DNA from: a virus
Taxonomy: Duplodnaviria; Heunggongvirae; Uroviricota; Caudoviricetes
IMG/VR virus record: IMGVR_UViG_2681813236_000002
DNA: 19,149 nt
Direction: 5' to 3' (one strand)
Shown here piece after piece: positions 12,001 to 15,000 of this stretch. Numbering within the stretch: position 1 is the stretch's first letter; the number at the start of each line of letters is the position of its first letter. A program made the position numbers.

Positions 12001-15000
12001 ATCGGAGTAATCAGTAAACAGTCCGCCGCCAACAATAACATCATAACCGTGGTTACGTGTCGGTTGTCGCCCGTTATCTGTTCCTTCTGACCAGGCCACC
12101 ATATCGAGGAAAGCTTTACGCTGGGAATTTAGTACCTGCATAAATTACTCCTTAGAGCCACCAAACTTATTACCGATTACTCTCATTGCAGCCCCACGAA
12201 TTGCATCGACCCCGATCAGCCCAACGCCGCCACCAATGGCAACAGAAAGCGATTTAGGCCATCCGACATACTCAAGAGCGGATGCAAAAGTCAGCGTCAG
12301 AGCGCCACAGAGCAAAATCTCGAGCGTTTTTCGCTTCCAGCCACCACCACCGTCAAAATAGGCAATGCGCAAGCCAGCCATAACGATCGACATAATTACT
12401 GCGCCCAGCGGTGTGTCTCCATGCCACCAGCTCTGTAACAATTCAAGTAAGTCAGACCAGGAATGAGGATCGTTATGCATTTTCATAATTCCCACCTCCG
12501 GTTATCGGAAGTGCAACGAGTGAAGGGAAAGAAGCTGGTTATAGCGCTGAGTCGCAAAAGATGCGTAGTGCACAAAAAAGGCCGCCCACAGGCAGCCTCT
12601 TTTTATAATTCATTGAGTTAACAACATTTAAATGCTGGTGGTATAGAAGGTTTTTCACCAGAACGGCAAGCCGGACACCATGACTGAACGATATGCCTGC
12701 CGTCTCCCATATCCCTATAACCAAAGTCTATTGTTTTATAAAAAACGTGCACTCCGGCATCAGCAGAACAGTTTGGGCAAGATTTATATTCAACCCCTTC
12801 TTGTTCAACTTCTCGTGAATAGTTTAATGACTGCTCACAAACAGAACAACGCTCCACCATATATGCTCTCCTGTTTTTGATAGAGATTTATGGGTAGCAA
12901 TTCCATTCAAAAGAAACATTGAAGGGTGTCACTTTTTCAAAATGAGCGTAGCTGGCTGCCAGTTTTTTGTACAACACACTTTAAGGAAGGTGAGCCTTAA
13001 AAACACAATTGACATCAATAAAAAACCCGCTCGGTGGCAGGTTCTTGAAGATTATCAACGATAGACACACAAAGCCCATCATTAGGAGAATTCTAACCAG
13101 ATTTTTTGAAAAATGCAAGCATCATGTCGCCATCTTCGTCGAACATCATTTATCTTGTCACCTTTCTCAATTGTGTCTCTGCATATGCTTCTTCCTGCCA
13201 GCACTTTGTAACCAGTTTATCAATGACATCTGCATATCCTTTGTACCACTGATAATCCGTCAAGTCTGGTACCAGTTTCTGGACATGATGCCGCGCCAGT
13301 GTGGTTGGTAAACGGCTAAACCGGTTACCATTGCAACGCCCACAAATCTTATAAACAGGCGTACCATGAAGCCGGGTTCTTTTTTCATCCAGGACAATAC
13401 CTTTACCCTTACACCCTCTGCACGCTGTGCTGACTTCTCCCTTACCATAACAATGCTGACATAGTTCCTTCACCCACTCTTCCTTGATAACAGATTCCCC
13501 GCTTCTGGAGTGTTTCACCACTTCGCGCAATACATTATGAAATCCAGTACCAGCACAATGCTCACAGCGAGCCTTACTTGCCGCAGACCTGGAATAATCA
13601 GCAAAGGCAAAATTCACAAGGTAAGGAATGAGCTGTAGCCGGGTTTCTTCACTCAATTTATTCAATGTCGGGTTATCCAGTGCCATCGCGTAATTGAGCA
13701 GACCTTCAATCGCAAACTGAGGATCCTGAACACCAACTTTTGCTAGGAATAAGGCAAACCCAAGCGGTGCTTTCGACTGCACCATCCCCTGCGCAGCCAT
13801 CACATCCGTAATTGTTAAACCACCAGAGCCTGTCGCCGGTGCGTCATCGCTCAGTTTTGGAGATTTCGGGGAGTAATATTTCGGTAAGGCTTCAAGGTTC
13901 ATGCTCGTTCTCCACTTACGCCAGCACGCCTATTGCCAGCGCACGATCGATAAAACGAAATATCAGCTCCAGCTGGGAACCATACTTCTCTTCAAATGCC
14001 ACGGTATCCGCATGCAGCTCGTCGTGATGCTTTCTGCACAAAGGCAACACAAAGAGGTCATGCGCTTTTGTACCCATCCCGCCCTGACCGTGGCCTATCA
14101 GGTGGTGGGGATCATCAGCAGGCTTTCCACAACATGCACACGGCTGCGTCTTAACCCAGCGCGTGTACTTTTCGTTAACCCAGCGGCGACGTTTTGGGCG
14201 TAACATAAAAGACTCCGGCGACTCCGGATCCACTTTCAGCGCCAGCACCTTTTTCGCTTTATCCTGGATGATGCTGGTGGCAGGAACCGAAGGCACAAGG
14301 TCACTTTCCCGGGTGACAGACGGCACAACAGGCTTCGGTAATCTCAGTGCCTTACGGGCTGCACTTTCCGGTAAGGCATCCGCCAGGTCATTACGAACCA
14401 GCCACCAGCACAGTTCCGGCATTGTCACAACGTGACTATCATCAAAACCGAGATCCCGACGCACGACAGACAACACCCAGCGGGCACAGTTATCCGTTGC
14501 CATTGATTCCAGCCGTTCCGTGAACTGATCGCGCAGCTGGTTATCGCAGTGCCAGCACAGACGGATTGCGCCCGGCGCGTGTCGCATTGTGGTCATGTTC
14601 TCGCTGTGCCAGTCGGAATGAGGCCATTGGCAGCCTTTTTCACGAAGTAACCAGCTTTCAAGACATTCCACTCCACCAGCACGACGGATCACTGCCTCAT
14701 TGCGGAACACGGCCCGAACGGCAGGATCATCCGCCAGCGGTTGTGATGCCGCCGGAACGGCACCACTGGCAAAAGATGAATAACGTTCCGGCTCAGGCTC
14801 CAGCAGGACACGCCCCTGCATAAACAGGGGCATCAGCTCTGAACCGGGTCTGAACAATACGATCCCCATACGCGGGGCAATTTCAGGGGTCAGTAGTGCT
14901 CTCACGGTCACCTCAATGAACGGTATCGAGCAGCTTTAACAGCTCAGGGAATCGGGATTCGAAAAAGTGCGGCTGCGTCTCGCGCGGATTTGCGGGACTG

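Follow-up and report, generated by a model that had tools for sequence, protein, structure and literature searches.

The window analysed here is a stretch of 19,149 nucleotides (nt) from a Caudoviricetes virus, IMG/VR record IMGVR_UViG_2681813236_000002, and this study concerns one small open reading frame (ORF) within it, of 80 amino acids (aa), termed ORF80 hereafter (translation: MVERCSVCEQSLNYSREVEQEGVEYKSCPNCSADAGVHVFYKTIDFGYRDMGDGRHIVQSWCPACRSGEKPSIPPAFKCC). The minus-strand genes follow each other in the order KilA-N protein, DUF968/HNH-like protein, Q antiterminator, ORF80, holin, lysozyme, Rz/Rz1, Nu1, terminase and portal, and because of this order the window was recognised as the late-regulatory junction of a lambdoid prophage of Escherichia coli (Table 1). 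An earlier note, made from the sequence alone, had described the ORF and its strong AGGAGA ribosome-binding site, both of which are present, the minus strand being added here as a refinement. It had also assigned the ORF to the cargo slot between Q and the holin, at the start of the late transcript, and this placement was borne out by the Q protein found upstream and the holin found downstream. The Q-to-holin interval carries Shiga toxin (Stx) in lambdoid phages and, in the loci compared here, defence systems.

Table 1. Features around the Q-to-holin junction of the window, in the direction of transcription.
Feature	Position	Strand	Basis
KilA-N protein	14913-15722	-	gene order
DUF968/HNH-like protein	13916-14911	-	gene order
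Q antiterminator; would drive read-through into ORF80 and the lysis genes	13150-13902	-	PF03589, E 1e-53; E. coli homologues annotated as antitermination protein
Putative PR'-like late promoter, TTGCAT-17 nt-TAGAAT	13090-13118	-	sequence; tentative assignment
AATGATGGGC, -10-like element 6 nt after the -10 hexamer; candidate sigma-dependent pause/qut	13074-13083	-	AA(C/T)GATGGGC in four loci
Short tR'-like hairpin, CCUGC/GCGGG + U6, between promoter and ORF80	13020-13046	-	RNA fold; weaker than in relatives
Shine-Dalgarno AGGAGA, six bases before the ATG (12860)	12867-12872	-	sequence
ORF80, 80 aa, 9 kDa, isoelectric point (pI) 5.6, ATG to TAA, two putative zinc sites	12618-12860	-	ORF listing, homologue alignments
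Strong intrinsic terminator directly 3' of ORF80, GGCUGCC-UGUG-GGCGGCC + U6, A-run flank	12574-12604	-	RNA fold
Lambda-family holin, first lysis gene past the ORF80 terminator	12145-12486	-	PF05106, E 1e-27; sequence; RefSeq homologues

ORF80 is a genuine, conserved protein-coding gene. Nei-Gojobori ratios of nonsynonymous to synonymous substitution (dN/dS), taken from the six pairs with unsaturated dS, ranged from 0.05 to 0.21, indicating purifying selection, and both frame and length (78-80 aa) are kept in homologues down to approximately 60% identity. The AGGAG motif is invariant in all seven aligned upstream regions, which come from otherwise diverged loci, and the presence of 8 cysteines among 80 residues has a probability of approximately 6e-6 at a background of 1.2%. 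Antisense ORFs on the plus strand showed no comparable coding support. Taken together, selection and conservation rule out ORF80 as a non-coding artefact. The existence of the protein is not new, because it is already in databases as a hypothetical protein and as a member of a PHROG of unknown function. Indeed, the identical protein is recorded from 181 E. coli contigs (RefSeq homologue WP_001306866.1, hypothetical), with near-identical copies in Salmonella and Morganella, all of them named "hypothetical protein". PHROG 7682 is matched over the full length (residues 1-80 on profile positions 1-80, E 4.9e-58), as it is by 15 of 15 close homologues, and this membership explains nothing about the protein, since the family carries no function. 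Two further profiles, phrog_19700 and phrog_34160, match the core alone (residues 26-69).

Three CxxC/CPxC pairs and a terminal CC had been listed in the earlier note, and all of them are present: CSVC (residues 5-8), CPNC (28-31), CPAC (62-65) and CC (79-80). Loss of the cysteines in homologous prophages had been named there as the result that would speak against a zinc-binding role; seven of the eight turned out to be conserved. Among the 15 close homologues, C5, C8, C28, C31 and H38 never vary and C62, C65 and C79 rarely do, with C80, mostly lysine in these proteins, as the exception. When diverse relatives are aligned (58 sequences), invariance is restricted to C28, P29, C31 and R66, and K26, S27, S32, F46, G47, R49, Q59, S60, C62 and C65 are at least 90% conserved. 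The N-terminal CxxC, the histidine and the C-terminal cysteine behave as a unit: among 100 family members with a recognisable core, all of these ligands are present in 70, all are absent in 22, and only 8 are mixed. Since these ligands come and go together, two metal sites were deduced. The alignments imply that ORF80 is a two-zinc protein, with an obligatory Cys4 core (C28, C31, C62, C65) and an optional Cys3His site (C5, C8, H38, C79), the latter probably clamping both termini onto the core. The zinc-binding character proposed earlier is therefore retained, each site having four conserved Cys/His ligands in knuckle spacing, but the pattern of three pairs plus CC gives way to Cys4 plus Cys3His, because C80 is not conserved.

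An AlphaFold2 model built on the 58-sequence alignment is compact and confident (mean predicted local distance difference test score, pLDDT, 92), with short strands and helices predicted to start at each core CxxC. The structure prediction suggested in the earlier note thus returned a confident fold. Foldseek found no significant neighbour of the model, with E values of at least 0.05 in BFVD and at least 0.6 in the PDB. It is very improbable that this fold represents a degenerate or minimal beta-beta-alpha-Me (HNH-like) nuclease or toxin of the size of RalR/Lar. The histidine covaries with the metal ligands, no similarity to RalR was found, and ORF80 does not combine a catalytic His and Asn/His motif with a Pfam HNH or significant fold match.

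The family had not been recognised in the earlier note, and no Pfam, NCBIfam or PADLOC model reached its threshold in scans of ORF80. The best Pfam zinc-ribbon scores were 13.6-14.3 bits against cut-offs of 22-34 (Zn_ribbon_TFIIB, Zn_ribbon_8, zf_Rg, DUF7836), and NCBIfam TIGR02605 (FmdB CxxC_CxxC_SSSS) scored 19.8 bits against a cut-off of 31.3. Generic zinc ribbons such as TIGR02605, Zn_ribbon_TFIIB and Zn_ribbon_8 have, like ORF80, two N-terminal CxxC knuckles approximately 20 residues apart, and matched it weakly (E 6e-4 to 0.2). These alignments pair C5/C8 with C28/C31, which is probably wrong, because the invariant core pairs C28/C31 with C62/C65. No match was obtained by tblastn of ORF80 against 50,697 phage records, PDB sequence searches with both profiles gave nothing below E 0.2, and an Rfam scan of the whole window returned no family.

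The interval between Q and ORF80 contains the candidate late control signals. Conservation of the PR'-like promoter extends to L001, L002 and phage Ayreon, where it likewise lies directly behind a Q of this type, and the first 130 nt past Q match approximately 660 E. coli records; a consensus scan missed the promoter because its -35 element matches at 3 of 6 positions. Its layout is presumably that of lambda PR' (TAAATT-6 nt-AACGATGGG), in which a -10-like pause element lies downstream of the -10 hexamer. The tR'-like hairpin that follows was calculated at -11.8 kcal/mol in the window and in L001, -13.9 in Ayreon and -16.3 in L002 (E. coli E7476), a difference that is suggestive at most; in Ayreon, a terminator is annotated at the homologous position. 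ORF80 starts approximately 160 nt past this hairpin, and no consensus promoter was found between tR' and its ATG, the candidate TTGTAC-18-TACGCT being weak. The terminator directly beyond the gene is much stronger (-19.6 kcal/mol, z -4.4, equalled by 0 of 200 shuffles); L003, L007 and L013 have a homologous terminator past the ORF, and the same motif precedes the holin in ORF-less relatives. With a terminator on either side, ORF80 would open the Q-dependent late transcript as its first ORF. High expression on induction, as had been anticipated for it, is plausible but conditional: with the tR' hairpin upstream and a second, stronger terminator downstream, it needs antitermination by Q.

ORF80 is accessory cargo and not core late-operon equipment. 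The full interval was found in 23-24 of 5426 complete E. coli genomes, as compared with the approximately 660 records of the PR'/tR' block alone, and the guanine-plus-cytosine (GC) content of the gene is 42% versus 52% for the window. Deviating base composition and an own terminator are the marks of a moron in the sense of Juhala/Hendrix, and ORF80 has both. It occupies the same slot as other lambdoid Q-to-holin morons and cargo (stx genes, HicA-like toxins, methylases, defence systems) and shares with them a GC content lower than the surroundings, a downstream terminator of its own, patchy distribution and exchange across Q and holin types. Unlike such cargo, it has no promoter of its own that could be found, and in leaders of the StxS type, described below, it replaces the leader terminator instead of following it. 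Homologues with 63-79% identity are located in the same place in Citrobacter, Enterobacter and Kosakonia prophages, which have a different Q family (PF06530) and either Phage_holin_8 plus 3_7 or holin_2_1 as holins; there, defence-like genes of several kinds, most of them on the reverse strand, lie upstream of the ORF. E. coli E7476 has PADLOC PDC-M53A/B, a candidate defence system of two genes, between tR' and the ORF80 module (L002 2272-3855).

The interval from Q to the late leader or ORF80 was observed to be a defence hot spot in several relatives (L002, L005 2949-4800, L007 2732-4809, L003 3783-4705). Its cargo comprises PDC-M53A/B, GmrSD with HEPN, a RelA/SpoT-like protein (PDC-S33-like) with NA37, and an M78 peptidase with a helix-turn-helix (HTH) protein, mostly on the strand opposite to the late genes.

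The position of ORF80 immediately before the lysis genes could be taken as a sign that it modulates lysis timing through the following holin or endolysin, a role for which an assay had been proposed in the earlier note. The gene is indeed always just upstream of the lysis cassette in enterobacterial prophages, a position accounted for by the general use of the slot for cargo. ORF80 has no hydrophobic or transmembrane segment, as would be expected of a holin, antiholin or lysis regulator, and its partners are unrelated holin families (lambda S, Phage_holin_8 plus 3_7, holin_2_1). A strong terminator separates it from the holin, at a distance of 0.5-1.8 kb in some loci, and distant relatives occur in restriction-modification (R-M) loci that have no lysis genes. 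A lysis-timing role is therefore unsupported and hardly to be expected.

In the Citrobacter, Enterobacter and Kosakonia prophages, an invariant 21-mer, TAACGCGTACGCAAAAACTAT, and then GTTAAGAGTGGT stand before the ORF (L003 4846-4890, L007 4857-4900). The 21-mer was found in at least 120 IMG/VR contigs (L040-L159), and related sequence in 358 phage records, most of them from Stx1a and Stx2a phages. In E. coli Sakai Sp5, the 21-mer aligns around the Q stop codon, with the 5' part of the small RNA StxS. The ORF is present in only 8 of the 120 contigs; some others have HicA-like or other small genes in the slot. In ORF-less leader loci, the first terminator-like hairpin occurs within 120 nt of the element in 88 of 104 cases; in ORF-bearing ones it occurs at +399 to +532, past the ORF, in 14 of 14, and it has the GGCTGCC...GGCGGCC motif seen before the holin in ORF-less phages. 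From this placement it follows that the ORF took the place of the leader terminator in the StxS-type lineage, and hence that it should join any transcript that reaches the leader element without Q. Such a replacement of a StxS-type leader terminator by a protein gene appears to be undescribed and, if true, would constitute a simple, promoterless route to constitutive prophage expression.

The leader element contains an 8-bp palindrome, GCGTACGC, and its conservation is far above that of its flanks; it might act as an RNA seed, a processing site or a protein-binding site. A reading of the 21-mer itself as the late promoter was withdrawn, because of the Sp5 alignment and because the PR' start, mapped by Sy et al. 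258 nt upstream of tR' (PMC7547250), falls inside Q. The coordinates of Sy et al. (2020) refer to NC_002695.1, and the sequence compared here is version.2 (L165, Sakai Sp5, approximately 618-640; Q stop at 824). If the published 3' end is equated with the T-run of tR', the PR' start of that study comes to lie inside the Q coding sequence, and the GUAUU RNase E motif lies approximately 103 nt, not 85 nt, from that end; the two sets of figures do not agree.

In lysogens of Stx phages, the late promoter shows constitutive activity, and its leader, which ends at tR', is processed to StxS (Sy et al., PMC7547250), and the PR' leader is abundant in lysogens (PMC7547250, PMC8065619). ORF80 could then be a lysogen-expressed moron, read from this constitutive promoter on an extended leader transcript that ends at the terminator past the ORF, with a product that serves defence, superinfection exclusion or host modulation and does not act on the phage's own DNA. 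Agreement with this explanation comes from the constitutive, abundant leader, from the lack of any terminator between leader element and ORF in the 14 StxS-type loci, from the low GC content and own terminator of the gene, from the PDC-M53, GmrSD plus HEPN and RelA/SpoT-like systems in the neighbouring slot, and from the fusion of family domains to defence-type nucleases. Several observations make it rather unlikely all the same. The tR' hairpin precedes ORF80 in the window, the gene has neither a promoter of its own that was found nor a PADLOC match, and a product of 80 aa that lacks an effector domain would depend on a partner, which is not encoded alongside. Moreover, the Sakai PR' start is inside Q, and ORF-bearing loci carry cargo between Q and the leader element, so that lysogenic expression in StxS-type loci would depend on the true position of PR'.

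Distant relatives provided informative context. A HMMER scan of 1.8 billion representatives, with a family threshold of E 0.001 or better, retrieved 117 members of the ORF80 family, mostly of 55-100 aa. Some members are fusions, in which the ORF80-type zinc domain (ZnR) is joined to an HNH domain through a middle region (ZnR-X-HNH; P0080, P0105, P0129) or stands at the C-terminus of a DGQHR/DndB/DpdB-like protein (P0111). Genomic neighbourhoods were compared in 27 loci, obtained by a genome scan with the close-homologue alignment, and three metagenome loci, and 67 neighbour proteins were scanned against Pfam. The commonest families were D12 N6-adenine methyltransferase (11/67), N6_N4 methyltransferase (8/67), DUF6996, DUF6997 and DUF7226 (6/67 each), PDDEXK_11 and MT-A70 (3/67 each), HNH (2/67) and DpnII (1/67). 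An adenine methyltransferase lies within approximately 3.3 kb in 19 of the 30 family loci. Recurrent gene orders were a D12 methyltransferase, a 432-aa DUF6996/6997/7226 protein, ZnR and a reverse-strand N6_N4 methyltransferase (five loci); a D12 methyltransferase, a 154-aa PD-(D/E)XK nuclease and ZnR (two loci); and DpnII or D12, ZnR-X-HNH and a DpnA-like methyltransferase (two loci). In one locus, ZnR stands beside a complete DpnII cassette. The wider family is thus linked to adenine-methylation R-M and defence loci, and is in part fused to nucleases.

Two of these arrangements deserve separate mention. The D12-DUF6996/DUF6997/DUF7226-ZnR operon with its convergent N6_N4 methyltransferase occurs in L026, L027, L034, L036 and L039 (Clostridia and other metagenome-assembled genomes); the 432-aa protein, for which no PDB or NCBIfam relative was found, is presumably an uncharacterised GATC-type restriction nuclease. 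The ZnR-middle-HNH protein, of approximately 370 aa, lies inside DpnII-like cassettes, between DpnII or DpnM and the DpnA-like methyltransferase (L030 6004-7095, L035 5977-7113), and its unannotated middle domain may serve to read modified bases.

On mobile elements, the stand-alone ZnR adjoins orphan methyltransferases, as in ZnR-Dam (20-nt gap) and ZnR-ParB-methyltransferase. In two Xenorhabdus prophages and one Sodalis prophage, the order is MT-A70, ZnR, holin, with a gap of approximately 50 nt and 59-63% identity to ORF80. This arrangement, being in the same slot, connects the clade of enterobacterial phages with the methyltransferase-linked family. Across the wider family, adenine methyltransferase and nuclease genes are conserved neighbours, whereas ORF80's own clade stands alone.

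A small zinc protein so close to methyltransferase genes might be a gene regulator, analogous to the controller (C) proteins of R-M systems or to Mu Com, which would bind DNA or mRNA and time a methyltransferase or nuclease, or else the phage late and lysis genes. We consider this unlikely. In most R-M loci, ZnR is located at the 3' end, behind the nuclease gene, or is joined with the nuclease in one protein, an uncommon arrangement for a controller, although in one R-M locus (L028) it lies upstream of both M and R. Immediate contact with methyltransferase genes on several mobile elements (ZnR-Dam, ZnR-ParB-methyltransferase, MT-A70-ZnR) and the first position of ORF80 in the late transcript would suit a regulator, but ORF80 is missing from approximately 93% of the phages that share this late leader. 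The one-zinc relatives are very basic (median pI 9.2), as a nucleic acid-binding regulator could be, but the ORF80 clade is acidic. No HTH or C-protein model was matched, nor was Zn_ribbon_Com (Pfam, E up to 1), and, while genes of Mu Com-type activators overlap the modification gene that they activate, the next gene after ORF80 is a holin, beyond a terminator.

The reading that we favour, although it falls a little short of being probable, is that ORF80 is a small zinc adaptor modulating a methylation-linked nuclease or methyltransferase. The presence of relatives inside adenine-methylation R-M loci points to the conflict between restriction and anti-restriction, and not to lysis. The ORF80-type domain would be an adaptor binding nucleic acid, the accompanying enzymes or both, and in the phage its target would be the restriction or modification of phage DNA. 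Late in infection it may, for example, guide or enhance the methylation of progeny genomes; alternatively, it may block a nuclease. The structural and genetic statements made above on ORF80 are much more secure than this functional proposal.

A number of observations weigh against an adaptor role. No methyltransferase or nuclease gene adjoins the ORF in the clade of E. coli, Citrobacter and Kosakonia, and adenine methyltransferases are not enriched upstream of ORF80-bearing lambdoid late regions (2/4) relative to ORF-less ones (19/39). DNA binding by the ORF80 clade is not obvious, because the protein is mildly acidic, as opposed to its basic one-zinc relatives. Late expression does not suit classical anti-restriction, which concerns incoming DNA; lysogenic expression, in turn, is doubtful in the window owing to the tR' hairpin that precedes ORF80, and in StxS-type loci the true PR' start may lie inside Q, far upstream of the intervening cargo. 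ORF80 matched none of the PADLOC families (0 families), and any biochemical function of the family members is putative.

Small prophage proteins with comparable roles are known. PNB-2, the partner of the Stx-prophage MT-A70 enzyme M.EcoPA8orf6770P, is a precedent for a small specificity subunit, and MT-A70 enzymes often need a partner that sets substrate choice (PMC10810198). The likeness lies in the small size, in the prophage origin and in the fact that ORF80 family members also adjoin MT-A70, Dam or D12 methyltransferase genes. However, PNB-2 is a predicted winged helix-turn-helix protein encoded upstream of its methyltransferase, whereas ORF80 is a putative two-zinc protein that is not methyltransferase-adjacent in E. 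coli; PNB-2 was rejected as a homologue for its winged-HTH nature. Lar/RalR (Rac) and Ral (lambda) are likewise small prophage proteins that act on R-M, the role proposed for ORF80, and Lar is a CxxC...CxxC protein, but their genome position and timing are unlike those of ORF80. Kinship with Lar/RalR was rejected (hhalign probability 4.5% over 32 columns with E. coli K-12 RalR; PHROG Lar-like matches at E of at least 0.011), as was kinship with YdaE (hhalign probability 0.1%).

A broader proposal can be built on the adaptor reading, although as a whole it is doubtful. Two-zinc (Cys4 plus Cys3His) mini-domains would form a new class of bacterial modules that act as adaptors of adenine methyltransferases and restriction nucleases or set their specificity, in GATC-type and other modification-based defence. 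Temperate phages would have captured them into the late-promoter leader, in StxS-type phages in place of the leader terminator, so that they are made in lysogens and late in infection and manipulate methylation or restriction of phage DNA. A literature search by protein accession, by the DUF names of the neighbouring nuclease and by combinations of zinc ribbon, MT-A70 and R-M terms found no description of the ORF80 family. Accordingly, three features seem not to have been described in the literature searched: the two-site zinc architecture, the absence of a structural neighbour and the link of the wider family to GATC-type R-M systems and orphan methyltransferases. At present, ORF80 is a well-supported hypothetical protein with informative relatives; should the adaptor reading be true, a recurrent small slot protein tied to DNA methylation and restriction would be a new player in phage-host conflict.

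Other features of the window were noted in passing. The prophage encodes a Dam-family gene at 16451-17137, and the host has a D12 Dam. Between this Dam methyltransferase and RusA, a 130-aa protein (16128-16520, minus strand) contains a LexA DNA-binding domain alone (PF01726), without the protease domain, and corresponds to phrog_362, "transcriptional repressor". The holin has a lambda S-like Met-Lys-Met dual start, with ATG codons at 12486 and 12480 on the minus strand; the mechanical ORF list places its start at a GTG (12495), and RefSeq homologues at the first ATG. Directly after Rz/Rz1, a 185-aa ORF (10575-11132, minus strand) with a GC content of 38.9% and a hydrophobic N-terminal region gave no Pfam or PADLOC match, only phrog_6169 (unknown function), and resembles a second low-GC cargo gene, located at the boundary between lysis and packaging genes.

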